From contig JACDEK010000001.1 of assembly GCA_013816445.1 (NCBI GenBank), forward strand, positions 1 through 40,378: DNA of 40,378 nucleotides, in the 5' to 3' direction. The translations under genes and the position numbers were made by a program. Shown here one piece after another: positions 6,291-40,378 of the stretch (positions are counted from its first letter, which is position 1; each line of letters opens with the position of its first letter). This DNA comes from Candidatus Saccharimonadota bacterium. GTDB taxonomy: Bacteria > Patescibacteriota > Saccharimonadia > CAILAD01 > BJGX01. Below the pieces are notes generated by a model. That model had not been told where the DNA came from. It worked only from the letters and a program-made list of their open reading frames with translations, and searched no databases.

Positions 6291-6291
6291 T

Positions 6292-7703: not shown

Positions 7704-7895
7704 ATGAACCCAGAAGGTAATAAAGTCACAATGACAGATATAAGCAATCTACTAACAAGTATTGGTGAACCTGGTACTAAGCAGAAAACTAAAGAAAAAG
7801 CAGTAAGACAGCTATTCCAAGACAAGGGTCTATCTGGTCAGAACCCACAGGGTATACACGTTGCAGATTCTCTCGAGTCGTATCCAGAATACTAG
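7704..7895 (+). CDS. Hypothetical small protein (63 aa)
   Basis: AAGGAGatattATG. Confidence 0.55.
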   Translation: MNPEGNKVTMTDISNLLTSIGEPGTKQKTKEKAVRQLFQDKGLSGQNPQGIHVADSLESYPEY

Positions 7896-7896
7896 G

Positions 7897-7905
7897 TGGT
7901 ATAAT
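7897..7905 (+). promoter_or_regulatory. Extended -10 promoter TGGTATAAT
   Basis: taggTGGTATAATAGT; 16 nt upstream of AAGGAGG 7921-7927. Confidence 0.5.
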
Positions 7906-7932
7906 AGTAAGTAATTAACTAAGGAGGCTATC

Positions 7933-8397
7933 ATCGCATCTAAAATATACACAGTTAGAGAAAGACTATTCCGCCTCATGGACAAGAAGAGGGATTGCTG
8001 GGAATGGACTGGTAGTATAAGTCAACATGGGTATGGTCGATTAACTATTAGTAATAATGGCCATAAGAAGACTAGGTCTGCCCATAGAGTATCTTATGAG
8101 ACTTTTGTAGGCGAAATACCTGATGGTCTTACTATAGACCACTTGTGCCGTAATCGTAAATGTATTAACCCTAGTCACTTAGAAGCTGTAACTATTAAGG
8201 AGAATGTATCTCGTGGCAACCCATTATGGAAACAAGAAGCTGCTAGAACTCACTGTAAATATGGGCATGAGTTTACAGAAGATAATATGTATAAGTATAA
8301 AACTAAAACAGGCGGAGTTTGTCGTAATTGCAAAACGTGCATGAAAGCACGTACAAGAAAACGATATACACTTGCTAAACTAGAAGGAATGTGTTAA
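7933..8397 (+). CDS. HNH homing endonuclease (HNH_3-type), probable ATC start
   Basis: CWEWTG...HGYGR...SAHRVSYE...IDHLCRNRKCINPSHLE. AAGGAGgctatcATC has the same geometry as ATG genes. Frame is open from 7930 to the first ATG at 7978, which has no SD. Confidence 0.8.
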   Translation: MASKIYTVRERLFRLMDKKRDCWEWTGSISQHGYGRLTISNNGHKKTRSAHRVSYETFVGEIPDGLTIDHLCRNRKCINPSHLEAVTIKENVSRGNPLWKQEAARTHCKYGHEFTEDNMYKYKTKTGGVCRNCKTCMKARTRKRYTLAKLEGMC

Positions 8398-8398
8398 A

Positions 8399-9073
8399 GT
8401 GGCGAGGTCTATCGATCAGATCACTGCTGAACTAAATAGTGCTTATCAGCCACAAATAGATGTAGTAAACAAGCAGATGGCTGAACTACCCGCCTACTAT
8501 CAAGCCCAACAGGGTGGTTTAGATACCGCTAAAACTAATGCTTTTGGCGATATTACTAATATGGCATCATCTAAAGGTATGTCTTACTCTGGTATGCCTA
8601 TAGCTGAACAGTCACGATATGTTGGTGAAAAATACCTCCCAGCTATGGCTCAGTTAAAACAGCAGCAAACACAACAGCAATATGGATTACAAACTAATAT
8701 CAATGATATTTACTCTAAACGTCTTACACAAGCTCAAGGTTTACAACAACAAGAGCTTGCTAGAGAAGAAGCTACAAGACAAGCTGAAGCCGAAAGACAA
8801 CAGCAAGAACGACAATTCCAGCAAAAACTTGCTGCTGAGGCCCGAGCTGCTAGATCTAGTCGTGGTGGTGGTGGTGGAGGGGATCGTGCACCCAAACAAC
8901 CATCTGTAGATGACGCTGCTGCTCTCGTAAATAGTCTTCGCTCTAGTGGTCAATATGGTGACTCTCAGTATGGATCAATAGCAGAAGCTATGCGACAACG
9001 TGGTTATGATATATCAAGAGACTCTGTCTATGATAAAGGACTAAGAAAAGCTTTCAATTTTGGATATAGTTAG
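8399..9073 (+). CDS. Q-rich coiled-coil virion/internal protein (224 aa)
   Basis: GTG start; QQQ/ERQ-rich helix, G8 tract; precedes the 1320-aa protein. Confidence 0.5.
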   Translation: MARSIDQITAELNSAYQPQIDVVNKQMAELPAYYQAQQGGLDTAKTNAFGDITNMASSKGMSYSGMPIAEQSRYVGEKYLPAMAQLKQQQTQQQYGLQTNINDIYSKRLTQAQGLQQQELAREEATRQAEAERQQQERQFQQKLAAEARAARSSRGGGGGGDRAPKQPSVDDAAALVNSLRSSGQYGDSQYGSIAEAMRQRGYDISRDSVYDKGLRKAFNFGYS

Positions 9074-9075
9074 TC

Positions 9076-12000
9076 ATGGCGTCAGATCCATTCGCAGCTT
9101 GGGAGTCAAGATACGGTTCGCAGTCTAGCGGTGGGGGTGGTAATGATCCATTTTCATCTTGGGAGAGCCGATATAGTGTTGCTCGACTAGACCCTAATAA
9201 ATCACAAAAAGCTGGTGGTCTAGATCAGCTTAACCCAACTCAGCTTAAAAAATTTGGGTATAGCCCACAAGATTTAGGCCAAGAATATGTTAATAAACAA
9301 TATGCTAATCAATTCAGTGGTGCTAATAATACGTTTGCTCGTATATTTAAAGATTTAAGTGACAATGATCGTAAAAAATTATTAGATAATATAAGTAACA
9401 TTCCAGACAACCCAATAAAAAATATGTTGCTTGAAACATCTAAAAATGCTCCAGGTGCAAGTTTTAAATCTAATGCTATAGATAGGGCTAGAGAGTTTAC
9501 TAATGCTCCAGCAAGCACTAAATTATTAAGTGCTTTCTCACCTGTAGCAACAGGTTTGGCATTGTTTAATGCAGATAAAGCTATTCCTAAGCCAATACGA
9601 AACTTTAGCGAAACATATAACCAAAACTTGCTTGGTGGACTCGGTAGAGAAGGTGTCAATATTGCCAATGCTGGTGCTAATTTAATGAGCTTTGGTTTGA
9701 ATAGAGATGCTAACTCTAGAAACGCTCAGATGGTTAAGGACTCTTTATTTCCAGAACAGGGAACTAAAAACTCTCTATCTACTACAAAACGAGAGGATCT
9801 AGATAAGTGGGGTAAATATGGTCAATTAGCTGGCTCTGGTTCTAAACTTGCTACTGAAATAATAGGCACAGGTGATATTGGTAATGTTGCTAAGGGAATT
9901 ACTGCTGGCAGTTCTCTAGTAAAAGGTCTAGCTGGGGGTGGTAGAATTGCACAACTAGGATCTAAAGCCCTACCTTTACTCGGTGAATCGCTTGCTTCTA
10001 CTGGTGTTCAAACAGTAGGTAATGGCGGTGATATAAAAAGAGGTCTTGCTGAGGGTCTTGCTTATGATGCAGCATTTAACGTTGTAACTCTTGGTCTAGG
10101 AAAGTATGCAAGCAAAATAAATGCTCCCGAAACTCTCACTAAACTAGTAGAATCTCAGAGGGATCTAAAAGGTGTCCTGAGAGTAGTAAATGATGCTAAT
10201 GTTTCTGCTAAAGTTAAGAAACAACTCCTCGATGAAACAGATAGATTATCTCAGCTAGCTCTACCAACACCAAGTGGTAAATTAAGTGGTGATGGATTCA
10301 CTATGTCAAACTCACCAAATATTGCTACGATTGGTGCTAGCAAAAGACTTGGCTCAATAGAAAAAATGCTAGGTGATGCATCGGCTGGTAAAAAACAGAT
10401 AGATCCCGAAGCGTTTAAATCTCTGAAAGCTGAGAGAGATAACATACTACAACAAATACAAACTGGTGGTATTCAAAAACCAGCCAGACAAGCATCTACT
10501 GCAATAGGTGAGGACTTTTCTATGGGGGCAACAGCCCCACAAGGAATGATCCCAGCTCCTAGAACACCTGCTGAAATAGAAGTAGCAAAGATACTCGACC
10601 CTAACTATGCAAAACAAGAAGCCAAAGCAATAACTGATGCTAATAAATCTGGTTTCAAAGATAAACTATCAATGATAAAAAGAAAGTTCGTTGGTGCTGG
10701 TCTTGATGACGTTGCGATACTTGAAACTACTGCTAGAAACTCTAATCCTAATCTAAAAGCATCTGAGGATATTGGTAACCTCATAGATAGAACTCGCAGA
10801 TCAGAGATAATAGCTCAACAGTTTGGAAAAGATGCTGGCTTAGAAGACATAATAAAACTACATGGCGGAAAAGATTTTGATAAAGCTAGTATATTCTTGA
10901 GAGATAAGAGAGCCTTAGAACTATACAAGAATACTGGTGAGAATATGTCTGGTGTAGATCTTGGCAAAGCTGCTAAAAATGTAGAACTAAACTCAGCTAG
11001 ATTTGCTGAATTAAGTTCTAAAACCCAAGAGTACAATGGACAGTTCTTAGATGAAGCAGTAAATTACAATTTAATTTCTAGAGAAACTGCTGAGATGCTC
11101 AAAAAACAAAGTCCTGATTATGTTCCATTTAATCGTGTAATGGACGAGATAGAAAAATCATTTGATAGTGGCAGTTCAGTGAGTTTATCTAGCCAGAACG
11201 TAGTCAAAGCAATAAACGGTTCTGACAGAGAAGTAAAGAACGTAATGGAGAATATGTACGAGAATATGGGTAGAATGGTTGCACAGGGTGAAAGAAACAA
11301 TGCTGCAAAAGCACTATCATCTTATGTAAACCTAGAGGGTAATCCATTTGGTATAAGAGAGATAAAAGTATCCGAAGCTATCGGTAATAAAAATACTTTC
11401 TCATTCTTGGATAGTGGAGCAAAGCGTACTTTTGAGATAGCTCCTGAATTTAGAGATGCTGTAAAAGGCATGAATGGAGTAGAGATTGGCTTACTTGGTA
11501 AGATAATGGCACCATCTGCTAGACTTTTGAAAATGGGTGCAACTGGGCTAAACGTAGTATTCGGAGTGAGAAACGTACCAAAAGATCAACAGTTCTCCTT
11601 TATAGTTGGTAAACACCCAATACTTAGTGTTAAAAACTTCTTCAAAGCAGTGGGTGATACTGCTGGATTAGGTGAGTTCGGTGATGAGATGGCTAGATAT
11701 GGTGGCGGTACTATTGAAGCTGATGTATTCCGTAAGATGGGCAAAACAGTAAAACAGATACAGGCTGAAAGAAGCTTAGGTTCAAACCTTGCATACAAGG
11801 CAGCGAGACCTAACCAGTGGCTCAGATCAGTAGAAAATACCATAGGCAAGACCGAAGAGCTAACAAGAACTATGAATGCAAGATCATACTATGACGCTGC
11901 ATCAAAGGCTGGTAAAACAAAAGATGAAGCCATGCGAGAGGCTGTAGATGCCTATAATAAGGTATCTGTAGACTTTTTGAGAGCTGGGTCGATAACTCGT

Positions 12001-17557: not shown

Positions 17558-17767
17558 TTAATTTATAAAATGCACTATATTCCTTAGTTGTGTGATGATG
17601 TCGTTAATTTCTTTTTCTACAGGGCAATCTTCAAATGATTCATGCTGCTTATTTTTATTGTGGTGTAGATTTTTACAATCAACAATTCCATACAACTCTA
17701 CCAACTTTCCAAGCATCTGCTGTGTTTCTGGTTGTGAATCAATCTTTGCTTTTTCAGTCTTATTCAT
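17558..17767 (-). CDS. Hypothetical protein (69 aa)
   Basis: GGAGGAGGtaagATG at 17767 (29-bp junction cassette); the track ORF start at 17812 is less likely. Confidence 0.6.
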   Translation of the reverse strand: MNKTEKAKIDSQPETQQMLGKLVELYGIVDCKNLHHNKNKQHESFEDCPVEKEINDIITQLRNIVHFIN

Positions 17768-17791
17768 CTTACCTCCTCCAATATTATTAGT
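17763..17791. repeat. 29-bp gene-junction cassette, copy 1 (identical to 19974..20002)
   Basis: ttcatcttacctcctccaatattattagt. On the minus strand ACTAATAATATTGGAGGAGGTAAGATGAA encodes LIILEEVR-stop, an SD and the next ATG. Confidence 0.9.
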
Positions 17792-18561
17792 CCTACCTCT
17801 GGGTAGACACAATTTCTTAATACTTGTCGTTTGTTTTTTAACTTTATACCTGTAAGGTCTAGTCCGTGTAGGTCTGTAAGTTCGGGTATCTGAGCTTCTC
17901 GTATAATCGCCTTTCGTTGAGCTTCTTTACTGGCGTTGCGGTTCATTGTACCTATCTGAACATAGTCTATCTTTACTTCGGGTATCTTGAAGTTAGCCCA
18001 GAAGTAGTGTCTGCCCATCTTTTGCGGTTCGACTAGTGGTTTATAGTACCCCTGCACGTTCTCAACTACATACTTGCCCTTAAAAAAGTACTGTAAAAAT
18101 AGTATCTCTTGGTATAGTTTCATATCTGGGTATCTAAATATACCTTGCCCTTTAAGAAAAAAGTTTGTTTTGCTATGTGACTGACATGGAGGGCTTGACC
18201 ATATAAAGTCGTAATCTTGAAAGTGTTCCATCAAGTATTCATGTGCATCACCCACAACAACCTCATCATCAGGAAAGAATTGTTTGTATACCTCAGCTAT
18301 TTGTGGGTCATTCTCAACTGCCGTCACTTCCACATCTTTCCATAGCTTACGATTACCGCCGATACCAGCATATAGGTTTAATACTTTCATAATGGTCTTT
18401 CTATACATACTTGTGGGTATGGTGGTTTTGCACAGATGTCTTCTACCGCCCAATTCATTAGTACATTTACTACACCAAAGAATATTACTGTCGTTATAAG
18501 CATCACAATACTTATTGTTGCCAACTTCATACAACCCCCACATTGTGCTTGTACATCTCAA
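17764..18561 (-). CDS. dcm: DNA (cytosine-5) methyltransferase, compact; core may start at ATG 18390
   Basis: LNLYAGIGGN (motif I), SSPPCQSHS (IV), VVENVQG (VI), RQVLRNCVYPEV (X-like); 57-aa Cys-containing N-terminal extension is optional. Confidence 0.75.
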   Translation of the reverse strand: MRCTSTMWGLYEVGNNKYCDAYNDSNILWCSKCTNELGGRRHLCKTTIPTSMYRKTIMKVLNLYAGIGGNRKLWKDVEVTAVENDPQIAEVYKQFFPDDEVVVGDAHEYLMEHFQDYDFIWSSPPCQSHSKTNFFLKGQGIFRYPDMKLYQEILFLQYFFKGKYVVENVQGYYKPLVEPQKMGRHYFWANFKIPEVKIDYVQIGTMNRNASKEAQRKAIIREAQIPELTDLHGLDLTGIKLKNKRQVLRNCVYPEVGLIILEEVR

Positions 18562-29475: not shown

Positions 29476-30342
29476 ATGCCATCAGGTGCTTACGGATCAT
29501 CCAACGCTGTATCAGCAACACCAGCAGCAGTATTTCGTCCTAACGTATGGTCTAACGAAGTTCTTATGTTCGTCAAAAAGAACCTCGTTCTAGTACCACT
29601 AGTTCGTCATTACGATGCAGAAGTATCAAGTTACGGTCAGACTGTAGAAATTCCTAACGTTTCTACAATCGGTGCAGCTCTTAAAGTTGCCAACACAGGC
29701 GTGACTATTAACTACAACACAGAAACTAAAACAACTATCACATTAAACCAACACTACGAAAGTTCTTTCTTACTAGAAGACTTCGTTAAAATCCAGTCTA
29801 AGTATGATCTACGATCTGCTTACACAATGGCTGCAGCTTACGCTATAGCTGAAAAGATTGATGGTTTCATCGCTACTAACATGTCTACCTCATTCACCTC
29901 TTATGGTGCATTTGGTACTGTAATAGCAGATAGCCTAATCTTAATTGCTAACCGTTATCTTGACGATGCTAAAGCTCCACAGACTGATCGATCACTTGTT
30001 GTAACCCCACAAGGTAAACAAGAAATGCTAAATATCGATAAATATATTCGATACGATGCAATCGGAATCGGTGGAGACCGAAACAGCATCTTGACAGGAC
30101 AAATTGGTGAAATCTACGGAGTTAAAGTATTCATGAGTCAGAACCTTGTTCAGCTCGCTACTACAACACCACAGAACAACCACTTGTTCTTCCATAAAGA
30201 TGCTTTCGCAGTTGCTATCCAACAGCAATCTCGTACTCAGACCCAATACAAACAAGAATATCTTGCTTGGTTGGTAACAGTCGATATGCTATGGGGTGGT
30301 ACTGTACTACGACCAGCATTCGGTTTCAATCTTAAGTCATAA
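29476..30342 (+). CDS. Major capsid protein (HK97-fold, small podovirus type)
   Basis: AAGGAGGctattATG; 288 aa; position after scaffold; strong terminator downstream; motif pattern VWSNEVL...GQTVEIPN...AAAYAIAEKIDGF. Confidence 0.75.
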   Translation: MPSGAYGSSNAVSATPAAVFRPNVWSNEVLMFVKKNLVLVPLVRHYDAEVSSYGQTVEIPNVSTIGAALKVANTGVTINYNTETKTTITLNQHYESSFLLEDFVKIQSKYDLRSAYTMAAAYAIAEKIDGFIATNMSTSFTSYGAFGTVIADSLILIANRYLDDAKAPQTDRSLVVTPQGKQEMLNIDKYIRYDAIGIGGDRNSILTGQIGEIYGVKVFMSQNLVQLATTTPQNNHLFFHKDAFAVAIQQQSRTQTQYKQEYLAWLVTVDMLWGGTVLRPAFGFNLKS

Positions 30343-30365: not shown

Positions 30366-30389
30366 AGGACTCTTCGGAGTCCTTTTTTG
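30366..30389 (+). terminator. Rho-independent terminator after the capsid gene
   Basis: AGGACTC-ttcg-GAGTCCT followed by TTTTT. Confidence 0.85.
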
Positions 30390-30627: not shown

Positions 30628-30656
30628 TTGACATATCTCCATAAGCGGTTTATTAT
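30628..30656 (+). promoter_or_regulatory. Near-consensus promoter TTGACA-17-TATTAT
   Basis: Counted: -35 at 30628-33, 17-nt spacer, -10 at 30651-56. Confidence 0.6.
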
Positions 30657-30684: not shown

Positions 30685-31020
30685 ATGTTTGATAAGAAAT
30701 ACAAAAGTCCACTAGAATTTGACAAAGCACTAACAAAAGAGCTTGGATTAACAGGGGAACTAAACTCAAGCCTAGATGCAAAACTCGTCTATGTTAAGTC
30801 TCAAATAGAGCAGTTTAAGCAGATGATCATTCGTTATGAGTTTGACATACTGCTCACTAATAATCTAATAAATCATGAAGTAGAAGCTTTCCAAGCTAAA
30901 GGGCGTGAAAACCAATCATCTTTTATAAGCGATGCAAAACAATCAACTGCAGCACTTAAAACTATGATTCAGTTACGAGACGAGCTAGAGGCAGAAAAAG
31001 AAAAAGTAAAGAAGAAGTAG
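30685..31020 (+). CDS. Coiled-coil protein (111 aa)
   Basis: AAGGAGGcgaatATG. Confidence 0.6.
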   Translation: MFDKKYKSPLEFDKALTKELGLTGELNSSLDAKLVYVKSQIEQFKQMIIRYEFDILLTNNLINHEVEAFQAKGRENQSSFISDAKQSTAALKTMIQLRDELEAEKEKVKKK

Positions 31021-31026
31021 GCTAAT

Positions 31027-31821
31027 GTGGGTGATACATTAGCTGTAGTCCTACCAAGTAGGGGACTCTTATTTAGTGAAACTCTAGAGGAGTTGCTAAA
31101 TGAGTTAGAGGGCTTTAAGTACAAAATATTCTGGTCACACGCCAGATCATTACCAGACTGTTTTAATATCCCAACTGAAGAAGCACTGAAAGATCCAAGT
31201 ATCTTTGCAGTGCTTTTTGCTGAAGACGATATGATCTTACCTAAAGGGGTGCTTAAGAAGATGTTTGGTATGAACTACCCAGTAGTAGCCCTAGACTATC
31301 CATTTAGAAATAATGGTGATTCAACTATGTGGCACGACCCAGAGGGATTTGTCTTATGGTCTGGTACAGGGTTCTTACTAGTAGCCAAGCAGGTATTAGA
31401 GAATATGCAGAAACCAATTTGGATAACAAACACCACATGGGATACTATGGTCAAACAAGACCGAGTGTATATATGGCCTCGTAAGCTTACTAAGGTAGCC
31501 TATGGTCTACATGATGTGAACTTTGGTATGACTCTCTACTCACAGGGATTAAGAATAAAGGACGTAGAAATGGAAGGCGGGCAACGTAAACTTCGTAAAT
31601 TAGGCAGAGCTAAAGTAAACAACGGAGCTCACGATATTAAGGAACTTAACAAAATAGGTAGAGATCTTGTAATAAAAACAACTGACCCAAGAAAGATTGC
31701 TATATTCAAGCAGGCTTTAAGTAGGATTAGAAGTATTGAATTATGTGCAGAAGCACCTGACTTCATTGAGTATGTAGATGGGCAAGCTACCGTAAGAGGA
31801 GAAGAACATGAAACAGTCTGA
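31027..31821 (+). CDS. Divergent GT-A-like glycosyltransferase candidate, paralog 1
   Basis: LAVVLPSRGLLFSETLEE...FAEDDMILP (DxD-like)...YGLHDVNFG...GGQRKL...NNGAHDI; about one-third identical by eye to 32085..32951. Confidence 0.45.
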   Translation: MGDTLAVVLPSRGLLFSETLEELLNELEGFKYKIFWSHARSLPDCFNIPTEEALKDPSIFAVLFAEDDMILPKGVLKKMFGMNYPVVALDYPFRNNGDSTMWHDPEGFVLWSGTGFLLVAKQVLENMQKPIWITNTTWDTMVKQDRVYIWPRKLTKVAYGLHDVNFGMTLYSQGLRIKDVEMEGGQRKLRKLGRAKVNNGAHDIKELNKIGRDLVIKTTDPRKIAIFKQALSRIRSIELCAEAPDFIEYVDGQATVRGEEHETV

Positions 31822-31822
31822 T
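31798..31822. repeat. 25-bp direct repeat copy 1 (GGAGAAGAACATGAAACAGTCTGAT)
   Basis: Identical to 32075..32099; contains SD, ATG and the first 5 codons. Confidence 0.95.
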
Positions 31823-32098
31823 ATGAACGAAATAAAGGGTATAGACACTGTAGAGCTTATTGATTTTAGACACCTGAAAGAAGTAACACCTACGTTAATA
31901 ATGATTGCAAGACTTAAGTATACTAGTGCTAAAGGCATACTTCTTAGTGACGCAGTAGCACAGAACATACTCAACCTTGATATGCTCGTAGTAAATGATG
32001 AAAACCATCCTAAATATAACTCTACATACTGTGACATAAAGATTTACGCCGAATTAGACAAAAGGATAACAGATGGAGAAGAACATGAAACAGTCTGA
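31808..32098 (+). CDS. Small cassette-like ORF (96 aa) bracketed by the 25-bp repeats
   Basis: Begins MKQSD like paralog 2 and ends GEEHETV-stop like paralog 1. Confidence 0.5.
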   Translation: MKQSDMNEIKGIDTVELIDFRHLKEVTPTLIMIARLKYTSAKGILLSDAVAQNILNLDMLVVNDENHPKYNSTYCDIKIYAELDKRITDGEEHETV

Positions 32099-32099
32099 T
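32075..32099. repeat. 25-bp direct repeat copy 2
   Basis: Identical to 31798..31822. Confidence 0.95.
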
Positions 32100-32951
32100 C
32101 AATGGCTCGCAAAACAGCGTACAAAAGTTGGGGTTATACTACCAAGTCGTGGGTTGATATTCTCCCAGACAGCAGAAGAAATAGTAACAAACGTACAGGG
32201 TGTACGGCACAAGTTCTTTTTCGCTCATAAACTCCCTATACCAGAGTGCTTTGAAACACCTACTAGACGAGCTTTACAGGACAAGACAATTACCCATCTA
32301 TGGTTTGTAGAAGACGATATGATTCTACCGCCAGATGTACTCAAAAGTCTTGTAGATGCAGATAAGGAGTCTATAGCTTGTAACTACCCAGTTAATAATC
32401 AGGGTAGAGATGCAATGCTTATAGATGCAGAAGGACGAGTAGTATTCTCTGGCACAGGTTGTTTGTTAGTTAAACGAGCTGTATTCGAGAGAATGAAGAA
32501 ACCCTACTTCAGAACTGACATAGGCTGGCAAGGGCATAACTATGAAAACTTTATCAAGCTTATATCATCTAAGTCTCGCAAAGATAATCGCTATGGCTTG
32601 CATGATGTTACATTCGGAGTGCAACTCTACAAAGAGGGTAGACCAATTATAAAATCACCTATCTTGCTAGGTCAGAGAAAACTTGTAGCACTTGGTCAAG
32701 CAGGTACAAATGACGGTGCTCATCAAATAGAGGAGTGGACAGAAGTAAACGAGAATACAATGTATAACGAGATACGATCATATCCAGCCAAACCAGTAGG
32801 ATCACTAGTGACTGTAATGATAAATGGCATAGAGTCACCCATGATGGATGCAAAGCACGCAGCCATGCTTATGGAGAAGAAGGGTGCAACGCCCCCACCT
32901 AAGAGAAGCGTAATCATAGACGATAGTGCGGAGTTGTTATGGATCTCTTAA
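32085..32951 (+). CDS. Divergent GT-A-like glycosyltransferase candidate, paralog 2
   Basis: GGAGAAGaacATG; VGVILPSRGLIFSQTAEE...FVEDDMILPP...YGLHDVTFG...LGQRKL...NDGAHQI (track start 32073 is the same frame). Confidence 0.45.
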   Translation: MKQSDQWLAKQRTKVGVILPSRGLIFSQTAEEIVTNVQGVRHKFFFAHKLPIPECFETPTRRALQDKTITHLWFVEDDMILPPDVLKSLVDADKESIACNYPVNNQGRDAMLIDAEGRVVFSGTGCLLVKRAVFERMKKPYFRTDIGWQGHNYENFIKLISSKSRKDNRYGLHDVTFGVQLYKEGRPIIKSPILLGQRKLVALGQAGTNDGAHQIEEWTEVNENTMYNEIRSYPAKPVGSLVTVMINGIESPMMDAKHAAMLMEKKGATPPPKRSVIIDDSAELLWIS

Positions 32952-33667
32952 TTGTAATCATTACCTATAACCGCCTTGAATACACAAAACGTACAATACA
33001 AGATTTACTAGATACAATAAAGATACCTCACTATATCCTTGTAGTGGATAACGCATCTACAGATGGCACTCCTGAATACTTAGAAAAGTTACTAGATAAA
33101 AAGAAAATAGATGGGCTAGTTTTAAATGACGAGAACTACTATCCTGGCAAAGCTTGCAACATTGGTTGGGAGGAGGGATTAGAAGCTTATCCACAAGCAA
33201 CTCACCTTATGAGATTAGACAACGACTTTGTACTCTTAAAGGGCTGGGATACTACAGCAGAAAAATACTTTGACAAGATAGACAATCTTGGTCAACTTGG
33301 ACTAGACTATGATGCTATAAAAGATAATAAAGAACATGAAAAAGAATACAACGGTATGATATTGAACCACTGGCCAGGTGTGGTTGGTGGAGTAAATATC
33401 ATACCTAAAGGGCTCTGGGATCTAGGTATACGTTACGAGGAAACTCGCTGGATAAAGAAATGGGAGGGTATCAGCTCACCACAAGAGGACTCAGCACTCT
33501 CTAATAATATCAAAAGCTGGGGATTCTTAGTGGGGCATATGCAAGAGAAGCTTGCTTGGACGTTTGCAGATGAAACCAACTGGTCAGATTATCCAGATTA
33601 TTATATTAAGACTATGAGCGAGCGTGGATACGACGACCTAGTCAGAAAGATAAAAGGTAAAAAATGA
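32939..33667 (+). CDS. Family-2 glycosyltransferase
   Basis: LLIVIITYNRLEYTKRTIQDLL...ILVVDNASTDGT...RLDNDF. Confidence 0.75.
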   Translation: MDLLIVIITYNRLEYTKRTIQDLLDTIKIPHYILVVDNASTDGTPEYLEKLLDKKKIDGLVLNDENYYPGKACNIGWEEGLEAYPQATHLMRLDNDFVLLKGWDTTAEKYFDKIDNLGQLGLDYDAIKDNKEHEKEYNGMILNHWPGVVGGVNIIPKGLWDLGIRYEETRWIKKWEGISSPQEDSALSNNIKSWGFLVGHMQEKLAWTFADETNWSDYPDYYIKTMSERGYDDLVRKIKGKK

Positions 33668-34770
33668 AAGTAGCAACAATACTAGGTACTCGACCTGAAC
33701 TTATTAAGATGTCTGAAATTATTAAAAAACTAGACAAACATACAAACCACATACTTATCCACACTGGTCAGAATTATGACTTTGAACTAGGCGGTATATT
33801 CTATGAAGAACTTGGAGTAAGGAAGCCAGACTATGTGTGTGAATTAATTGGGGATAACTTACACGAAAAGATAGCTTCTATAATCGCTGCAACAGGCGAG
33901 GTATTAGCAAAAGAGAAACCAAACGCAGTTGTTATACTCGGTGATACCAATAGTTCACTAGCAGCATATATGGCTAAACGATTAAAGATACCAGTGTTCC
34001 ACCTAGAAGCTGGCAATAGATGCTTTGACGATAATGTACCTGAAGAAGTAAACCGTAGAATAATTGATCATATAAGTGATGTGAATATGGTGTACTCAGA
34101 AAACAGTCGACAGAACTTAATAGCTGAAGGCATAGCAAGGGATCGTATATTTACTATGGGCTCACCAATGCAAGAGATAATCGATACCCACGCTGGTAAG
34201 ATTGCAAAGAGCGATATACTACCCTACTTAGGAGTTGATGAGAATAAATACTTTGTAGCTAGTATCCACAGAGAAGAAAACGTAGATAACACGAACAACC
34301 TTAGTGAGATAGTTAAGTCACTAAACAAAATAGCAACTCTATATAACATACCAGTCATACTATCTGCTCACCCTCGTATGCTCGACAGAATGGAAAAGAA
34401 TAAGTTTGTTCTTGATGATAGGGTAATAGTACATAAACCATTTGGTTTCTTTGACTACATGAAACTCCAGATGAACTCTAAGTGTGTAATCAGTGATAGC
34501 GGTACAATATCTGAAGAAAGCTCTATAATGGGTTTTCCTGCAATAACCCTACGCAATACCATTGAAAGACCTGAAGTCATTGATGTGGGCGGTATGCTTA
34601 TCACTAGTATCAATATGATTAACATCCTGGACTGTTTAAAGGTAGCTACAAGCGACTTTGAAGCTTCACCCACACCAACAGCCTATGACATAGATAACTG
34701 CTCTGATAGGGTACTTAAAACAGTTCTTAGCTATACTCCGTATGTGAATAGATATGTGTGGAACAAATGA
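33664..34770 (+). CDS. UDP-N-acetylhexosamine 2-epimerase (WecB/FnlC/CapG family)
   Basis: ILGTRPELIKM...GDTNSSL...HLEAGNRCFD..VPEEVNRRIIDHISD...ERPE. Confidence 0.85.
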   Translation: MKVATILGTRPELIKMSEIIKKLDKHTNHILIHTGQNYDFELGGIFYEELGVRKPDYVCELIGDNLHEKIASIIAATGEVLAKEKPNAVVILGDTNSSLAAYMAKRLKIPVFHLEAGNRCFDDNVPEEVNRRIIDHISDVNMVYSENSRQNLIAEGIARDRIFTMGSPMQEIIDTHAGKIAKSDILPYLGVDENKYFVASIHREENVDNTNNLSEIVKSLNKIATLYNIPVILSAHPRMLDRMEKNKFVLDDRVIVHKPFGFFDYMKLQMNSKCVISDSGTISEESSIMGFPAITLRNTIERPEVIDVGGMLITSINMINILDCLKVATSDFEASPTPTAYDIDNCSDRVLKTVLSYTPYVNRYVWNK

Positions 34771-35705
34771 AGATAGCAGTTATAGGTGGTACAGGAAGCT
34801 TTGGTAAAGCTTTTGTAAAACGCTACTACAAGAAACACAAGATAACTGTTATTAGTAGAGATGAAGCAAAACAGCATGAAATGAGATTAGAGTACCCAGA
34901 TGTTGCTTACAAGATAGGTGATATTAGGGACAGAGAGAGAATGTTTGAACTTTTAAAGGGCTTTGATTGTATCTTTCAGGCAGCAGCTCTTAAACAAGTA
35001 CCCTCATGTGAGTTTTTCCCAATGGAAGCTGTTAAAACGAACATACTCGGAACGAACAATGTCATAGACGCTTCTGATGGGGCTAAGGTAGTCTGTCTAT
35101 CGACTGACAAGGCAGTATACCCCATAAACGCTATGGGTATCTCAAAAGCTATGATGGAGAAAGTAGCAATCTCTAAAGGGGCTATAGTTACTCGGTACGG
35201 TAATGTAATGCGTTCACGAGGCTCAATAATACCTATATGGGAATTAGCGGCAATAGATAACCAACCAATAAACATAACCAATCCTGATATGACTAGATTT
35301 CTTATGAGCTTAGATGACTCAATAGATCTAGTAATGTTCGCTATGAGAAAAGGTAAGCCAGGTAACATATTTGTCAAGAAAGCCCCAGCTTCTACTATGC
35401 AAGACTTAGCTAAAGCTGTCGTGAATACATTGGGTGATCTTATACCTGAATCCCCACCAGTTAACGTAATAGGTACTCGGCATGGGGAGAAGATGCACGA
35501 AACTCTTATAAGTCAGGAAGAAATGTATAGAACTGATGATATGGGCGATTTCTATAGAGTGAACCCAGACGGTAGGGATATGAACTACGATAAATACTTC
35601 ACTAAAGGCAAACAAGAAAAACCACCTGAAGCATACACTTCAGAGAATACAGAGCAACTAAATGTATTAGATGTTGAGGATCTGCTTTATGAAGCTAAGA
35701 GGTAA
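34767..35705 (+). CDS. UDP-GlcNAc 4,6-dehydratase/epimerase (CapD/FnlA/CapE/PseB family SDR)
   Basis: ATGA overlap; IGGTGSFGKAF...SRDEAKQHEM...GDIRDRERM...AAALKQVPSCEFFPMEAVKTNILGTNN. Confidence 0.8.
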   Translation: MKIAVIGGTGSFGKAFVKRYYKKHKITVISRDEAKQHEMRLEYPDVAYKIGDIRDRERMFELLKGFDCIFQAAALKQVPSCEFFPMEAVKTNILGTNNVIDASDGAKVVCLSTDKAVYPINAMGISKAMMEKVAISKGAIVTRYGNVMRSRGSIIPIWELAAIDNQPINITNPDMTRFLMSLDDSIDLVMFAMRKGKPGNIFVKKAPASTMQDLAKAVVNTLGDLIPESPPVNVIGTRHGEKMHETLISQEEMYRTDDMGDFYRVNPDGRDMNYDKYFTKGKQEKPPEAYTSENTEQLNVLDVEDLLYEAKR

Positions 35706-36453
35706 GATACTTTTACTTGGTTCTACAGGTATGGCAGGGCATACAATAAAACTCTACTTGGAAAAAGTAGGCTATCAGGTGGATACATTACATATGAGAA
35801 TACCAAGAGATATGAATTATCTAAGCCATGTTTATGAGTATGATGTGGTAATAAACTGTATTGGTATGCTTGTAAAAGAAAGCGAAATAGACCATGACAA
35901 GACAGTATTCGTGAATTCTTATCTACCCCAGTATCTAGCTAAGAGAGCTAAGAAGCTTATACACCTTAGTACAGATTGCGTGTTTGACGACAATTTCTAT
36001 GGGCGTAGCAAGGCTTTAGGTGAGGTAGTTAATGATAAAGACCTTACACTACGAATGTCAATTATAGGGGCTGATATGAAGCCAGGGGGTACAGGATTAT
36101 TTAATTGGTTTATGCAACAAGAGGGTGAAGTAGATGGATATAGTGAAGCTCTGTGGAATGGCATTACAACCCTTGAACTGGCTAAGGTTATAGATGAGGC
36201 TATTAAGCAAGATCTAACAGGTCTATATTCACCATTACCAAAATCACCTACAAATAAATACAAATTACTCTATATGATAAGAAAAGTATTTAATAAGGAT
36301 ATTGGCATAAAACTAGTAGAAAAGGGAGATGATAAGGTATTGGCTGAAACTAGAAAAGACTTTGAATACGAAAACAAAAGCTATGAGAAAATGCTAACTG
36401 AAATGAAGGAGTGGATTGATGAACACACAGAACTATACCCGCAATACCGCTAA
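35689..36453 (+). CDS. SDR-family sugar-nucleotide reductase (RmlD/FnlB-like)
   Basis: MKLRGKILLLGSTGMAGH Rossmann N-terminus; YGRSKALGE (YxxxK); follows the dehydratase. Confidence 0.55.
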   Translation: MKLRGKILLLGSTGMAGHTIKLYLEKVGYQVDTLHMRIPRDMNYLSHVYEYDVVINCIGMLVKESEIDHDKTVFVNSYLPQYLAKRAKKLIHLSTDCVFDDNFYGRSKALGEVVNDKDLTLRMSIIGADMKPGGTGLFNWFMQQEGEVDGYSEALWNGITTLELAKVIDEAIKQDLTGLYSPLPKSPTNKYKLLYMIRKVFNKDIGIKLVEKGDDKVLAETRKDFEYENKSYEKMLTEMKEWIDEHTELYPQYR

Positions 36454-37156
36454 GGAATGTGCCCTAAAGATAGAGAGAGCCGTTAAACACAGAGAGCCAT
36501 TTAGACATTTAGTTATAGATAGATTCTTACCAACAGCTATGGCTGATAGATGTTTAGAGGATTTTCCACACGAGAATACTAACATATGGGATATATCTAA
36601 TGATGATGTAGAGATCAAAATGAGATCTAAGTTTGATTCAGAGTTTGATTTTCCAGGTGAACTGGCGAATGTAGTACGAATACTCAACTCATCTATAATC
36701 TTAAAAGCTATGGCAGAGGCTATTGGGATAACAAAGCTGATACCAGACCCTTATTTTACTGGTGGTGGATTGAACCTGATGACTGAAGGTGGTGCTTTAG
36801 ATGTGCACATAGACGGCAACTATCACGATGCTATGAGGTTAAACAGAAGATTGAATGCAATCCTATTCTTAAACCCTAAGTGGAAAAAGCATATGGGTGG
36901 AGAGTTTGGACTGTACAATAAAAGTGGAACTATACTAAGAAAATCCATTGAGCCTATAATGAACAGATTAGTTATATTTGATACACATGATGAGTCATAT
37001 CATGGAATACCATCACCTATAAGCTTTGATAGACGATCTTTGATACTCTACTACTATACGGTCGAACCAAGACAGCACATGGTTATATCTGAACCTCACA
37101 GTGCTCTATGGAGAAAAAAAGACTTTACTGATAAGAAAGGAAATAAAACACGATGA
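36419..37156 (+). CDS. 2OG-Fe(II) oxygenase (prolyl-4-hydroxylase-like)
   Basis: AAGGAGtggattgATG; LDVHIDGN (HxD) ... NRLVIFDTHDESYHG (distal His) ... RRSL. Confidence 0.65.
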   Translation: MNTQNYTRNTAKECALKIERAVKHREPFRHLVIDRFLPTAMADRCLEDFPHENTNIWDISNDDVEIKMRSKFDSEFDFPGELANVVRILNSSIILKAMAEAIGITKLIPDPYFTGGGLNLMTEGGALDVHIDGNYHDAMRLNRRLNAILFLNPKWKKHMGGEFGLYNKSGTILRKSIEPIMNRLVIFDTHDESYHGIPSPISFDRRSLILYYYTVEPRQHMVISEPHSALWRKKDFTDKKGNKTR

Positions 37157-37659
37157 TATATGACGATCTTTACACAGATGAAACCTATAATCTACCGAAT
37201 ACTTTTAGAATAAACAAAGTGTATGAATGGGTAAAAAATTACAAATCCATCTTATATGTAGGCTGTGGTCAAGGTAACTATCTTAAGCACATGGACGATA
37301 AAGGACTTAATGTATCGGGTATCGAACTGAGTCAAGAAGCTTGTAGTAAGCTAAAAGGCTATAAGGTGGTGAACATAGACCTACTGCATTACAAAGGTAA
37401 GTATGATGCTTTGTACTGTATGGACGTTTTAGAGCACATAGAGCCTACTGAGATAGACGATAATCTAAAGAATCTTACATCTATAGCCCCCCATGCTTTA
37501 CTGGGCATAGCTAATCATTCTGATGTGTGCAGGGGTGTAGAGCTACATCTAATACAGGAGAACGCTGAGTGGTGGTGGGAACTATTAAGTAAGTATTATA
37601 AGAAAGTAGAACTATCTTGGATTGAAGATAGATTCTTTGCGTTCGAATGTTCTCTATAG
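37153..37659 (+). CDS. Class I SAM-dependent methyltransferase
   Basis: ILYVGCGQGNYL (motif I), DALYCMDVLEHI. Confidence 0.65.
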   Translation: MIYDDLYTDETYNLPNTFRINKVYEWVKNYKSILYVGCGQGNYLKHMDDKGLNVSGIELSQEACSKLKGYKVVNIDLLHYKGKYDALYCMDVLEHIEPTEIDDNLKNLTSIAPHALLGIANHSDVCRGVELHLIQENAEWWWELLSKYYKKVELSWIEDRFFAFECSL

Positions 37660-38333
37660 TAGTACCAATTGATCCTAATAGGTTACGTCAGTTTGAGTAC
37701 ACTAAACGAGAGTACGATAAAATGCCACAAGAAAAAGAACTTATTTTGGTGACTCGTAATGAATGTAATATAAAAAAATACCTAAAAAGATACCAGTTGG
37801 AAAAAGATGTAAGAGTAATACCCTATAAGTTTCTTGATGGGTTCAATTGTAGTATGGCTCTTAATATTGGAGTCAGGGAATCTAAGTACGACAATATAAT
37901 AATCACATCACCAGAAGTAAAGCCAGCACCAGATGTACTGGATAAGCTCGAACAGTCTATAGGTACAAACATAATATGTCAGGTGGCAGATGAATTAGAG
38001 GGTGGTGATATTGGACAAATACTCGTATATCATGGGTTTAGAGATGAATCACCAGCGATGTATTTCTTGGCAATGTTCAAGAAAAATGATATAGCTAGAA
38101 TAAACGGGTGGGACGAGGAGTTCATGAAAGGGTATGCTTATGAGGATAATGACTTCGGGGCACGTTGGGTACGAGCAGGGATTCCGTTTGAAATACGAGA
38201 AGACATTAAGGCAGTTCACCAATACCACCCTAGGTCTGAAACTAAACCTGGTGGAGCAGGAATTAACTACCAGCATTTTGGTGATAATAACCAGAATGTA
38301 GTTATTAGATGTAAAAATGGTCTAATGTTATAA
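37647..38333 (+). CDS. GT-A fold glycosyltransferase (GT2/galactosyltransferase-like)
   Basis: FSIVVPIDPNR...; GWDEEFMKGYAYEDNDFGARWVRAG. Confidence 0.55.
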   Translation: MFSIVVPIDPNRLRQFEYTKREYDKMPQEKELILVTRNECNIKKYLKRYQLEKDVRVIPYKFLDGFNCSMALNIGVRESKYDNIIITSPEVKPAPDVLDKLEQSIGTNIICQVADELEGGDIGQILVYHGFRDESPAMYFLAMFKKNDIARINGWDEEFMKGYAYEDNDFGARWVRAGIPFEIREDIKAVHQYHPRSETKPGGAGINYQHFGDNNQNVVIRCKNGLML

Positions 38334-38340
38334 TTAAGCT

Positions 38341-39351
38341 ATGAATAACGATAATATTCAAAAAGCCTATGAGGACAGGAAACAGGCCGAACTAGCCAAG
38401 CAAGATAAGGCTAGGCTTAGTGACCTACACAAAGATAAGCTCGTTGGTAATGATAGAGTGCAAAATGCAGTCATTAAATCTGCTATGGCAATTATTGAAG
38501 CACACTCAATTCATGAGCCTAAGGTAGCAGTAAAAAATTTAGGTAAGTTAGCTAAGAATAAAAGCCTATTAGATATAAACGAAGCAATATCTAGCTCAGA
38601 AAAGACTAGTAAACAAAACACAAAGCAACTCATAAATAGTGTAAACAAACTTATAGAGGTAGTAGATGCTATTCCTAAAGAGAACCCTGAGCTACCAGAT
38701 CCAGTAGAAGTAGTCAAAATAAACAACCTAAAAGACATAGAGCCAGCTCTAAATAAGATAACAGCAGCAGTCAATAAACTAAAGCTCAGCCCTGTATTTG
38801 ACCCTAAAATCACTGTTTCACCAGCAAATGTTAATGTCACTGAAGAAAAAGTTGATGTAAAACCAATAGTTGATTCTATTGAGAAACTTAAACCACTACT
38901 GAAAGATATAAAGAATAGTTCTACTAAAGTAGAGTTTACAGACTTAATAAACTCTGTGAATGCTACAACTGAGGCTATAAGCTCTCTATCTTTCCCAGTA
39001 CCAAACTATATACTCCCATTTACTTACAACGGTAAGGCAACTCAAGCAGCAGTTGATAGTACGGGGGCAATTATAAGTGGTGGTGATACAACTCTCCAAA
39101 ATCTTACAGACCAACTAGCTCATCTCATTAACAAGCTATCATTCTTATCTGGTGTGCAAGGTGTTGCTGCTGATATTAGGGTGACCATGCTCTCAGGAAC
39201 TATCACTACTGTCACGACTGTTTCAACCGTAACTACCGTAGGTACAGTAACTAACCAGACCAACATCGGTGGCTACGCTGCCACAAACACAATCATGAAT
39301 CAGATGAATACCAACGCTAATCAACTAAGACAACAAATAATCACCAATTAG
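38341..39351 (+). CDS. Virion-module protein with T/V-rich C-terminal tract (336 aa)
   Basis: Track ORF; ...LSGTITTVTTVSTVTTVGTVTNQTN... Confidence 0.6.
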   Translation: MNNDNIQKAYEDRKQAELAKQDKARLSDLHKDKLVGNDRVQNAVIKSAMAIIEAHSIHEPKVAVKNLGKLAKNKSLLDINEAISSSEKTSKQNTKQLINSVNKLIEVVDAIPKENPELPDPVEVVKINNLKDIEPALNKITAAVNKLKLSPVFDPKITVSPANVNVTEEKVDVKPIVDSIEKLKPLLKDIKNSSTKVEFTDLINSVNATTEAISSLSFPVPNYILPFTYNGKATQAAVDSTGAIISGGDTTLQNLTDQLAHLINKLSFLSGVQGVAADIRVTMLSGTITTVTTVSTVTTVGTVTNQTNIGGYAATNTIMNQMNTNANQLRQQIITN

Positions 39352-39359
39352 GAGACACT

Positions 39360-40378
39360 ATGGCTACTACGAATACATTACAAAAAACGCTAGACCGAAA
39401 AACTTGGGAGTTTATGACACCTGTCCCAGTAGCAACGCTGGCTGGGTCACACGTTATATCCTCTAACTCTGAAGACCCTTACGCACTACAGATGTATATA
39501 GTCTCTACGACAGCTCAATACCTGTTTCTACCTAAAGAAGATGCTTGGCTACAAATAGCCACAGTTACACTTGGAGGTACTTTATCTGCTGGTGCTACTG
39601 GAACGTATGTCTCTGTTGGCCCAACAGGTACGGCTACGGCTGGTTCTGCTACAACCATGACAACCAACCTCACTATTCCAGGTTCATTAGTTGGGTACAC
39701 TGTCAGAATCACGGCTGGGGCTGGTGCAGGTCGTCAAGCTACAATCTTATACAACACAACTGGTGCAAACGCAGTCTTTACATTTACCGCTTCGGGAACA
39801 GTCCTAGACGCTACTTCTGTCTATGAAATACGCTCAGGCAGGTTCTACGTCTGGAACGCTGGTACAATGTCAGCTACTTCCTTCCAATACTACGATGTTG
39901 CAACTAATACATGGACAGCTCGCTCAGTTACCTCAGCTCCAGCGACTTTCGCTACTGACGGTAAAATGATTTCTACCTCTGGTGTTTCACAATTTGTAAC
40001 AGGTACAGCCACCGCTGGTGCTGCTTCAACACTAACTAACAGTGCAAAAACTTGGACAGTGAACCAATGGACTAACTATCAGATACGCCTAACTGGTGGA
40101 ACAGGTGCAGGGCAAAAGAGAGTCATAGCTTCTAACACAGGAACAATTATAACTACTACGGCAATCTGGACGATTAACCCTGATGCTACTTCTACTTACG
40201 TTATTGAGGGTGATGAGAACGCCATCTACCTACTAGGGAACGCTGTTGTGACGCTGTTTAAGTATTCAATCTCTGGTAACTCATGGTCTACACTTACTCC
40301 TGGTGCTGCTAGGGCTGGTGCTGCTGGTCTTGCTACTTCTGGTCAGTGGGTACGCAGACAACCAGAAGCTGACTGGAC
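39360..40378 (+). CDS. N-terminal part of junction-spanning Kelch-like repeat virion protein (continues at base 128 after the overlap is collapsed)
   Basis: AGGAGacactATG at 39360; open to the window end; not in the track because it has no in-window stop. Confidence 0.8.
   Translation, partial: MATTNTLQKTLDRKTWEFMTPVPVATLAGSHVISSNSEDPYALQMYIVSTTAQYLFLPKEDAWLQIATVTLGGTLSAGATGTYVSVGPTGTATAGSATTMTTNLTIPGSLVGYTVRITAGAGAGRQATILYNTTGANAVFTFTASGTVLDATSVYEIRSGRFYVWNAGTMSATSFQYYDVATNTWTARSVTSAPATFATDGKMISTSGVSQFVTGTATAGAASTLTNSAKTWTVNQWTNYQIRLTGGTGAGQKRVIASNTGTIITTTAIWTINPDATSTYVIEGDENAIYLLGNAVVTLFKYSISGNSWSTLTPGAARAGAAGLATSGQWVRRQPEADW
40252..40378. repeat. Terminal direct repeat copy 2 (identical to 1..127)
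   Basis: Direct comparison of both window ends. Confidence 0.95.

Follow-up and report, generated by a model that had tools for sequence, protein, structure and literature searches.

In Megavirus chilensis, the enzymes Mg534-536 convert uridine diphosphate N-acetylglucosamine (UDP-GlcNAc) into UDP-N-acetyl-L-rhamnosamine (UDP-L-RhaNAc) and UDP-N-acetyl-L-quinovosamine (UDP-L-QuiNAc), and the viral fibrils carry L-RhaNAc, L-QuiNAc and methylated RhaNAc (PMC9614988, PMC4691112). Bacterial counterparts include WbvB/WbvR/WbvD, of which the Rickettsia pso genes are reported to be homologues (PMC6765297). Among tailed phages, the capsid and tail-tube subunits of mycobacteriophages are described as glycosylated (Freeman et al. 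2023, as cited in PMC12619734 and PMC11256854). Here we describe a stretch of 40,378 nucleotides (the window) from a genome bin of Candidatus Saccharimonadota, in which three overlapping, co-oriented open reading frames (ORFs) on the + strand, at 33664-36453, encode a predicted trio of enzymes for sugars of this kind. A literature search yielded no description of such a pathway from tailed phages.

With moderate confidence, we read these genes as a phage-borne trio of the FnlA-QnlA-QnlB type which leads to UDP-L-RhaNAc and UDP-L-QuiNAc, and whose products are likely put on virion proteins. The enzymes are ordinary members of known families and their chemistry is known from bacteria and giant viruses; it is the carrier and the setting that are unusual. 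The main interest is the location of the genes in the structural operon of a phage, with a 40-kb tailed phage devoting about one fifth of its genome to making and transferring a rare L-sugar, all within its particle-assembly operon.

Enzymes of the three-gene block

Three enzymes were predicted from 33664 to 36453:

33664..34770, + strand, non-hydrolysing 2-epimerase of the CapG/FnlC/QnlB/WbvD type, 368 amino acids (aa) (PF02350, TIGR00236)
34758..35705, + strand, dehydratase of the FnlA/CapE type, 312 aa from the likely ATG at 34767 (315 aa from the GTG at 34758) (PF02719 and PF08485)
35671..36453, + strand, short RmlD-fold 4-reductase (P0003), possibly a 3-epimerase too, of the WbvR/QnlA type, 254 aa from the likely ATG at 35689 (weak RmlD profile matches)

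The initial annotation, made by eye, had given the same extent and had quoted motifs from each protein. All three genes and all the motifs proved to be real in the translations, namely GTRPELIK, GDTNS, HLEAGNR and PEEVNRR in the epimerase, GGTGSFG, SRDEAKQ, GDIRD and AAALKQVPSCEFFPMEAVKTNILGT in the dehydratase, and GSTGMAGH and YGRSK in the reductase; the coordinates were right, while the start codons of the dehydratase and the reductase had to be revised. The likely start of the dehydratase is the ATG at 34767, which overlaps the stop codon of the epimerase as ATGA. For the reductase the likely start is the ATG at 35689, with GAGGA as a Shine-Dalgarno sequence just ahead; the resulting protein of 254 aa is as long as its 98%-identical twin in the database (P0004). 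The trio genes make up a single block with translational coupling. Coincidence is no concern for the motif and family matches, since these span the full length of the families.

The epimerase matched Epimerase_2 of Pfam (PF02350, E 2e-81) and passed the cut-off of TIGR00236 (NCBIfam WecB) with 236 bits against 210. Among structures in the PDB, CapG of Staphylococcus aureus (7YA2) scored 398 bits over the full length and the Rickettsia bellii enzyme (4HWG) 379 bits, compared with about 110 bits for WecB/MnaA of Escherichia coli or Bacillus. In the tree its neighbours were FnlC and QnlB of E. coli and CapG of S. aureus. It is an enzyme of the CapG/FnlC/QnlB type, nearer to these than to WecB/MnaA. 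The attempt to separate an FnlC type from a QnlB type by the epimerase tree failed, as FnlC, QnlB and CapG interleave.

The dehydratase was composed of a Polysacc_synt_2 domain (PF02719, E 2e-79) and the C-terminal domain PF08485 (E 2.5e-12). FnlA was its best NCBIfam match (349.6 bits, about 350) and PseB the second (263 bits), and against the PDB it scored 309 bits to Acinetobacter baumannii FnlA (4J2O), 299 to CapE, 197 to PseB, 154 to Mg534 and 106 to PglF. Its catalytic motif TDK...MGISK (TDKAVYPINAMGISK) has Met-x3-Lys (MxxxK) and not YxxxK, as in CapE and FnlA. This Met was found in 72 of the 74 cellular dehydratases that partner the reductase relatives (the set left after de-duplication and a length filter) and in S. 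aureus CapE, and the PseB-like viral enzymes have Tyr. In a tree of 119 sequences, the window copy and three sister-phage copies formed a long-branched clade with 100% support, which was nested among MxxxK enzymes including S. aureus CapE and was split with 96% support from the YxxxK clade, the latter coming from other uncultured viruses. It is thus a shortened, long-branch member of the family, and is assigned by sequence to the FnlA/CapE type, inside the CapE clade.

The proposal that the trio belongs to the UDP-2-acetamido-2,6-dideoxy-L-hexose pathway family was supported by the clade placement of dehydratase and epimerase and by the reductase neighbourhood. Neither enzyme fell into unrelated epimerase clades or unrelated clades of short-chain dehydrogenases/reductases (SDRs), the dehydratase lying in the MxxxK FnlA/CapE clade and the epimerase with CapG/FnlC/QnlB. 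The two trees therefore place the trio in the 6-deoxy-L-HexNAc (N-acetylhexosamine) family, and do not tell which epimer is made.

Reductase and type of pathway

It is the reductase that would decide the type of pathway, and it points to the WbvB/R/D, FnlA-QnlA-QnlB and Mg534-536-like type. Profiles matched it to RmlD weakly and at the N-terminal part. Its AlphaFold2 model (mean predicted local distance difference test score, pLDDT, 85.6) had the RmlD structures 1VL0, 3SC6, 5U9C and 2GGS as best Foldseek matches, with template modelling (TM) scores of 0.61-0.74. More than 7800 relatives of P0003 were found, mostly of 283-290 aa and labelled dTDP-4-dehydrorhamnose reductase only. Gene neighbourhoods were informative: among 80 loci of the family from named bacterial genomes, the reductase had an FnlA-like (MxxxK) dehydratase as neighbour in 79 and a CapG-like epimerase in 53, dehydratase-reductase-epimerase being the usual order, and another 27 had dehydratase and reductase without epimerase.

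Two clusters of E. coli were used for comparison. The O3-family cluster combined an FnlA-like gene with an SDR of 289 aa and with a WbuC cupin, without epimerase, and L-RhaNAc occurs among E. coli O antigens in O3 alone (review, PMC7685785). In a second strain, the FnlA-like gene was accompanied by an RmlD-family gene (292 aa) and by a WecB-like gene, as in the layout fnlA-qnlA-qnlB. P0003 was 33% identical to the O3 SDR (E 1e-35) and 33% identical to the RmlD-family (QnlA-like) protein of the fnlA-qnlA-qnlB-type cluster (E 8e-34), and the blocks common to P0003 and both E. coli reductases include VINCIG, STDC and Y..(S/T)K. With E. coli WbjC/FnlB, BLASTP gave 30 bits at the N-terminus only. 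The CapF/FnlB/WbjC enzymes are SDRs of about 370 aa with a C-terminal cupin, and no profile match to a cupin domain was obtained in the reductase (254-260 aa). Because the middle enzyme has no cupin and scores 30 bits to WbjC, the trio is best read as WbvBRD/QnlA-type and not as FnlABC/CapEFG; of the three named trios to which it had initially been likened, WbvBRD stands as the model and FnlABC and CapEFG fall away.

The catalytic residues of the reductase were well conserved. The protein has GSTGMAGH, T101 and Y110-GRS-K114, with G17, G20, M21, H24, T101, C103, Y110 and K114 invariant in the alignment, and STDC together with Y..(S/T)K was kept in 159 of 161 family members. A conserved Cys has been noted in Mg535, a bifunctional 3-epimerase/4-reductase (review, PMC9614988); the Cys of STDC is compatible with it and may hold the same position.

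With 254 aa, the reductase is below the 270-292 aa typical of the WbvR/QnlA/Mg535 type. It belongs to a phage clade (246-257 aa) in which two stretches, each of about 14 aa, are deleted, one of them just before the catalytic Tyr. At least 12 sequences, with 50-67% mutual identity, make up this clade, and all keep T101, C103, Y110 and K114. Between the window copy and its 98% twin (on contig L002), changes were biased to synonymous ones, with a rough ratio of nonsynonymous to synonymous rates (dN/dS) of about 0.3. Since the divergent clade keeps its catalytic residues and shows this bias, the reductase is read as a trimmed but probably working enzyme.

Phage genome and host

The window is the entire contig C113 of an 870-kb bin of 117 contigs, estimated as 94% complete. 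It has an exact 127-bp terminal repeat (1-127 = 40252-40378), giving a circular assembly of about 40,251 bp, and the open frames at its two ends fuse in frame into one 469-aa protein, a Kelch-like fibre gene. Phage hallmark genes were present, including TerS, TerL, the capsid and a portal and an adaptor of the SU10 type, along with genes for a CHAP enzyme and an LPD38 protein of 1320 aa. Because terminase, portal, capsid and adaptor genes occur together with the circular-assembly repeat, the window is a complete podophage genome of about 40.25 kb. No close cultured relative was found, the best portal match being 31% identical, and no integrase was seen among the window proteins scanned. An HNH endonuclease and a C5 methylase are encoded on a divergent arm of the genome. 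Within the late (morphogenesis) operon, the trio is located between the genes of capsid and adaptor, a setting that the initial annotation had not mentioned. The features that frame the island (30685-39351) are as follows:

17764-18561, minus strand, C5-cytosine methyltransferase, among early genes, 15 kb from the island
29476..30342, + strand, major capsid protein gene directly 5' of the island (PF19821, Phage_capsid_2; 80 IMG/VR relatives at 60-96% identity)
30366-30383, then a T run, + strand, terminator-like hairpin 3' of the capsid gene (consensus scan only)
30628-30656, + strand, near-consensus promoter TTGACA-17-TATTAT ahead of the island, upstream of the 111-aa ORF that opens it (consensus scan)

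The island may be driven by its own late promoter, and promoter-like sites showed no enrichment over shuffles in the consensus scan.

For the putative small-genome host, the RpoB core of the bin (contig C72) showed 57-58% identity with two Saccharibacteria, 54% with Bacillus and 52% with Parabacteroides. As the identity was only 52-58%, the putative host is no close relative of the Saccharibacteria, Bacillus and Parabacteroides genomes compared. Comparison of the phage with the remainder of the bin yielded no spacer-like match. A search of the contigs of the bin gave no second copy of the dehydratase or the epimerase, therefore the phage brings the pathway along.

Genes around the trio

The trio is enclosed by transferases and modifying enzymes:

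31027-31821 and 32073-32951, + strand, two glycosyltransferase paralogues (GTa and GTb) with a shared F(A/V)EDDMILP repeat
32939-33667, + strand, glycosyltransferase family 2 (GT2) gene (GT2 Pfam match)
36416..37156, + strand, Fe(II)/2-oxoglutarate (2OG) oxygenase, prolyl-hydroxylase-like (PF13640, E 5e-15)
37153..37659, + strand, class I S-adenosylmethionine (SAM) methyltransferase, 168 aa, candidate sugar O-methyltransferase (Methyltransf_23/12/25/11 matches)
37647..38333, + strand, glycosyltransferase of the GT-A fold, 228 aa, with a Glyco_transf_7C-like end (PF02709 match)
38341..39351, + strand, 336-aa protein following the last transferase, with a Thr/Val-rich C-terminal stretch TTVTTVSTVTTVGTVT

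A 96-aa ORF sits between the glycosyltransferase genes (31027..33667). No membrane helix was predicted in any island protein.

The HxD...H...R residues of the oxygenase were invariant in eight homologues. Its AlphaFold2 model (pLDDT 82.8) was closest in fold to OGFOD1/Tpa1, PHD2 and a bacterial prolyl 4-hydroxylase (P4H), and also to the nucleoside-antibiotic enzymes PasI/PolD, with TET, JBP and AlkB folds absent from the top 50 structure matches. The model would fit an enzyme that hydroxylates a protein acceptor as well as one that tailors a sugar. A small methyltransferase adjoins the epimerase, dehydratase and reductase genes in unrelated IMG/VR viruses and in variants within the lineage. 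The GT-A gene travels with the sugar cassette: 14 of the 32 lineage loci have it in a cassette with an epimerase, and other IMG/VR viruses have it beside the module. The 336-aa protein had no Pfam, NCBIfam or PHROG match; its position was conserved among relatives, with sequences 26-45% identical. Speculatively, it could be a structural protein and a target of O-glycosylation.

Related phages and cassette exchange

The same island was carried by a near-identical IMG/VR contig (L002), a 59-kb IMG/VR contig (L003) and a contig from a metagenome-assembled genome (L083). The island proteins of the sister phages L003 and L083 were 43-71% identical to those of the window, and capsid, portal and terminase were also related. 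A capsid-profile scan of IMG/VR recovered 80 loci at 60-96% capsid identity, and cassettes were counted in the 32 of them whose sequence extends 7 kb or more beyond the capsid gene. GTa, GTb and GT2 followed the capsid gene in all 32 and in the sister contig C64. The genes found after these core transferases were:

CapG-like epimerase, 12 of 32 loci
FnlA-like dehydratase, 9 of 32 loci
P0003-like reductase, 5 of 32 loci
oxygenase, 2 of 32 loci
SDR related to that of the C64 cassette (mostly distant, 21-25% identity), 10 of 32 loci
none of the listed genes, several of the 32 loci

The trio is one interchangeable cassette in a conserved capsid-adjacent glycosylation locus, since the 32 loci keep the transferases while the downstream genes vary. 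Sampled variants add stand-alone cupin, RmlC-like, GDP-mannose-dehydratase-like and small methyltransferase genes. One of them (L212, 13407-16985) had epimerase, FnlA-like dehydratase, a stand-alone 122-aa cupin (PF14667/FdtA-like), methyltransferase and GT-A, with no recognisable reductase in that interval. C64 (locus L162, 9000-22139), from the same bin, belongs to a sister phage with 62% capsid and 39% portal identity, in which the trio, the oxygenase and the methyltransferase are replaced by genes for a 294-aa NDP-sugar SDR, a 411-aa sugar C-methyltransferase and a 216-aa GT2-like protein.

The two phages of the bin also share the start of the 469-aa Kelch-like fibre gene, at 94% DNA identity between 39109-40356 of the window and 20874-22139 of C64. 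Because this identity occurs despite the divergence of capsid and portal, the fibre module looks recently recombined between them.

Beyond this lineage, 162 IMG/VR stretches encoded relatives of the reductase. Many of them carry GT-A, methyltransferase, epimerase, oxygenase, PseB-like YxxxK dehydratase and reductase consecutively, that is, the same six functions in another order (for example L019 at 5885-10813, and L024, L030, L045, L065 and L079), and they come from unrelated uncultured viruses with contigs of 15-280 kb. As unrelated viruses carry the same six functions in a row, both oxygenase and methyltransferase seem to go with the sugar pathway. The idea that the viral YxxxK dehydratases accompanying the reductase are Mg534-like, which would have tied the family to Mg535, was rejected, the enzyme of L036 giving 260 bits with PseB and 148 bits with Mg534.

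No verified cultured phage in INPHARED carried an FnlA-like or P0003-like gene. Two records (OR849864.1 and OR844989.1, locus L163; 'Staphylococcus phage SA ... Kay', UNVERIFIED_ORG, unannotated) contained capE- and capG-like genes; they look like chromosomal DNA of S. aureus and not like phage genes, and the matched Listeria records of INPHARED, also unannotated, may be similar host DNA.

Proposed pathway and use of the sugars

In the proposed pathway, UDP-D-GlcNAc of the host would first be converted by the dehydratase into UDP-2-acetamido-2,6-dideoxy-L-hex-4-ulose, through 4,6-dehydration and inversion at C5. The short RmlD-fold enzyme would then perform epimerisation at C3, if needed, and reduction at C4 of this UDP-4-keto-6-deoxy-L-HexNAc to give UDP-L-RhaNAc, which the CapG-like 2-epimerase could equilibrate with UDP-L-QuiNAc. 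The stereochemistry of the reduction is predicted from the type of the reductase. The cassette GT-A and the three core transferases, predicted to be soluble, may move the sugars in the cytoplasm onto virion proteins, the adjacent methyltransferase could O-methylate the sugar, and the prolyl-hydroxylase-like oxygenase could hydroxylate the acceptor. If the pathway is as proposed, the trio would offer compact, naturally minimised enzymes (312/254/368 aa) for the synthesis of UDP-L-RhaNAc and UDP-L-QuiNAc.

Judged by gene position and synteny, glycosylation of the virion is the most likely use of the sugars. A glycan on the virion could shield the particles, tune adsorption, or evade recognition by the host or by predators, and serotype-like glycan coats would then be a common phage strategy, beyond giant viruses and mycobacteriophages. 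A broader interpretation may be put forward tentatively, as a possibility on which we would not yet rely: the podophage lineage (at least 80 IMG/VR contigs) could have a capsid-adjacent glycan locus resembling an O-antigen locus, with invariant transferases and a hypervariable, horizontally exchanged cassette that creates virion 'serotypes', and its six-gene module might act on a virion protein, first by hydroxylation and also by attachment of a methylated 6-deoxy-L-HexNAc. The recurrent module would consist of epimerase, inverting dehydratase, RmlD-like reductase, prolyl-hydroxylase-like oxygenase, small methyltransferase and GT-A, and would be found in unrelated uncultured viruses as well. 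If true, it would be a phage counterpart both of the fibril glycosylation of giant viruses and of the hydroxyproline-linked glycosylation of eukaryotes.

Several points weigh against the reading that the trio makes UDP-L-RhaNAc and UDP-L-QuiNAc for the virion. The dehydratase, with 349.6 bits, is below the FnlA equivalog cut-off (TIGR04130, 730 bits). About 30 residues present in the cellular relatives are missing from the reductase, among them the loop that precedes the catalytic Tyr, and this segment (103-114) has low confidence in the model. The tie of the reductase to WbvR and Mg535 runs through gene neighbourhood and the E. coli clusters, and RmlD-like reductases can in principle reduce either face, so that a talo product (N-acetyl-L-pneumosamine, L-PneNAc, and then N-acetyl-L-fucosamine, L-FucNAc) is possible. 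The pathway is predicted from sequence, the position in the structural operon is circumstantial, and the host is assigned by binning alone. Finally, phage sugar genes have been read by others as auxiliary metabolic genes (AMGs) directed at the host surface (PMC12911398).

Alternative explanations

The sugars might be made as proposed but serve an envelope glycan of the small-genome host, as auxiliary metabolism, for superinfection exclusion or for altered adhesion. Surveys have read nucleotide-sugar genes of Patescibacteria phages so (PMC12911398), the 870-kb bin, 94% complete, fits a reduced-genome host, and GT2-type enzymes often act on lipid-linked glycans. We regard this use as unlikely, because the island contains no flippase, polymerase, polyprenyl-phosphate transferase or ligase and no predicted membrane helices, because it lies between capsid and adaptor genes on the late strand with its core transferases fixed beside the capsid gene in 32 of 32 relatives, and because the contig is a free circle with no integrase seen among the proteins scanned. 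Caution is advisable before phage nucleotide-sugar genes are automatically labelled as host-directed AMGs.

The same pathway family could also produce the other epimer, if the reductase delivers hydride to the other face and gives UDP-L-PneNAc (talo), from which UDP-L-FucNAc would arise as in FnlABC/CapEFG. RmlD homologues that make 6-deoxy-L-talose exist (Tll/Tal-type enzymes), and the first and last enzymes do not sort by pathway in the two trees, where the partners of RmlD-like reductases have CapE and CapG of S. aureus and FnlC of E. coli in their midst. On the other side, the characterised FucNAc pathways all use the long SDR-plus-cupin enzyme, to which P0003 is remote (30 bits to WbjC); its homologues occur in the E. 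coli O3 (L-RhaNAc) and fnlA-qnlA-qnlB clusters; and dehydratase and reductase without epimerase in 27 of 80 cellular loci is as expected of RhaNAc producers. This outcome seems quite improbable. The initial view had been that neither the epimer nor a precursor of pseudaminic or legionaminic acid (Pse/Leg) could be told from the sequence; the reductase now narrows the product to the L-RhaNAc/L-QuiNAc type, and the Pse/Leg precursor is excluded as no aminotransferase and no NeuB are present in the window or the bin.

Hypermodification of DNA is very unlikely. It would require the C5 methyltransferase to form 5-methylcytosine, the 2OG oxygenase to oxidise it and the transferases to add the rare sugar, as in the clusters of methyltransferase, 5-methylpyrimidine oxygenase and glycosyltransferase (MT/5mYOX/GT, Pyle et al.). 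The phage does encode a C5 methylase, and phage GT-A enzymes that glycosylate 5-hydroxymethylcytosine, as well as MT/5mYOX/GT clusters near structural genes, are on record (bioRxiv 10.1101/2023.12.21.572611). But the oxygenase is P4H/OGFOD1/PHD-like by profile and fold, with TET/JBP/AlkB not in its top 50; the methylase is 15 kb off on the opposite strand among early genes; and sister phages with other cassettes do without the oxygenase yet keep the core transferases.

We also give little credence to the reductase being a decayed remnant, with a cassette that halts at the 4-keto sugar or is non-functional cargo. Its two deletions of about 14 aa, one right before the catalytic Tyr, are common to at least 12 sequences that are 50-67% identical and have kept the catalytic residues, and the low confidence of the model at 103-114 and the L212 variant without reductase (dehydratase, epimerase and stand-alone cupin) have to be set against an intact, translationally coupled frame and the dN/dS of about 0.3 to the 98% twin.

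A Pse/Leg route opened by the dehydratase, to which the second-best family match (PseB, 263 bits) might point, is effectively refuted by the catalytic MxxxK in place of YxxxK and was rejected since a six-frame search of window and bin gave neither a DegT-type aminotransferase (PF01041) nor a NeuB synthase (PF03102), families which the same search recovered in 14 and 9 of 14 control genomes, respectively.

Comparison with known systems

WbvB/WbvR/WbvD of Vibrio cholerae O37, which equals FnlA-QnlA-QnlB of E. coli and Rc0456-0458 of Rickettsia, has the same three enzyme types encoded by adjacent genes: an inverting dehydratase with MxxxK, a short RmlD-like reductase and a CapG-like 2-epimerase, with 379 bits between the phage epimerase and the Rickettsia bellii enzyme. 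The comparison of the reductase was made through the E. coli O3 and qnlA-type clusters. The locus described here differs in its phage carrier, in the order epimerase-dehydratase-reductase and in having no Wzx/Wzy-type partners. Moreover, the phage reductase is about 30 aa shorter with two deletions, and the dehydratase, which falls about 25 aa short of FnlA in length, is below the equivalog cut-off.

With CapE/CapF/CapG of S. aureus (= FnlABC/WbjBCD), the first and last enzymes are close, being about 48-49% identical to CapE and CapG and in the same clades. The middle enzyme is of another type (no cupin, 30 bits to WbjC), and the predicted stereochemistry at C4, hence the product, differs.

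Mg534/535/536 of Megavirus chilensis is likewise a virus-encoded route, with enzymes of 323/270/370 aa compared with 312/254/368 aa here. The genes of Megavirinae are clustered with glycosyltransferases, and their sugar cassettes are clade-specific (PMC9614988, PMC10117803, PMC4691112). Mg534 has YxxxK and belongs to a separate subfamily (154 bits, versus 309 for FnlA), and Megavirus is a giant virus of a eukaryotic host, whereas the present cluster lies between capsid and tail genes of a 40-kb tailed phage. In Megavirinae the sugars, methylated RhaNAc included, end up on the virion, as is proposed for the phage.

The MT/5mYOX/GT clusters of phages differ in that the oxygenase of the window is not TET/JBP-like. 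In mycobacteriophages, according to the papers in which that work is cited, the glycosyltransferase genes adjoin the capsid gene as they do here. The window phage also encodes a full rare-sugar pathway, and its glycosylation is predicted from genes. To our knowledge, mycobacteriophages with virion glycosylation use nucleotide sugars of the host and carry transferases only. The closest parallels of the locus are the Megavirus Mg534-536 cluster and the virion glycosylation of mycobacteriophages.

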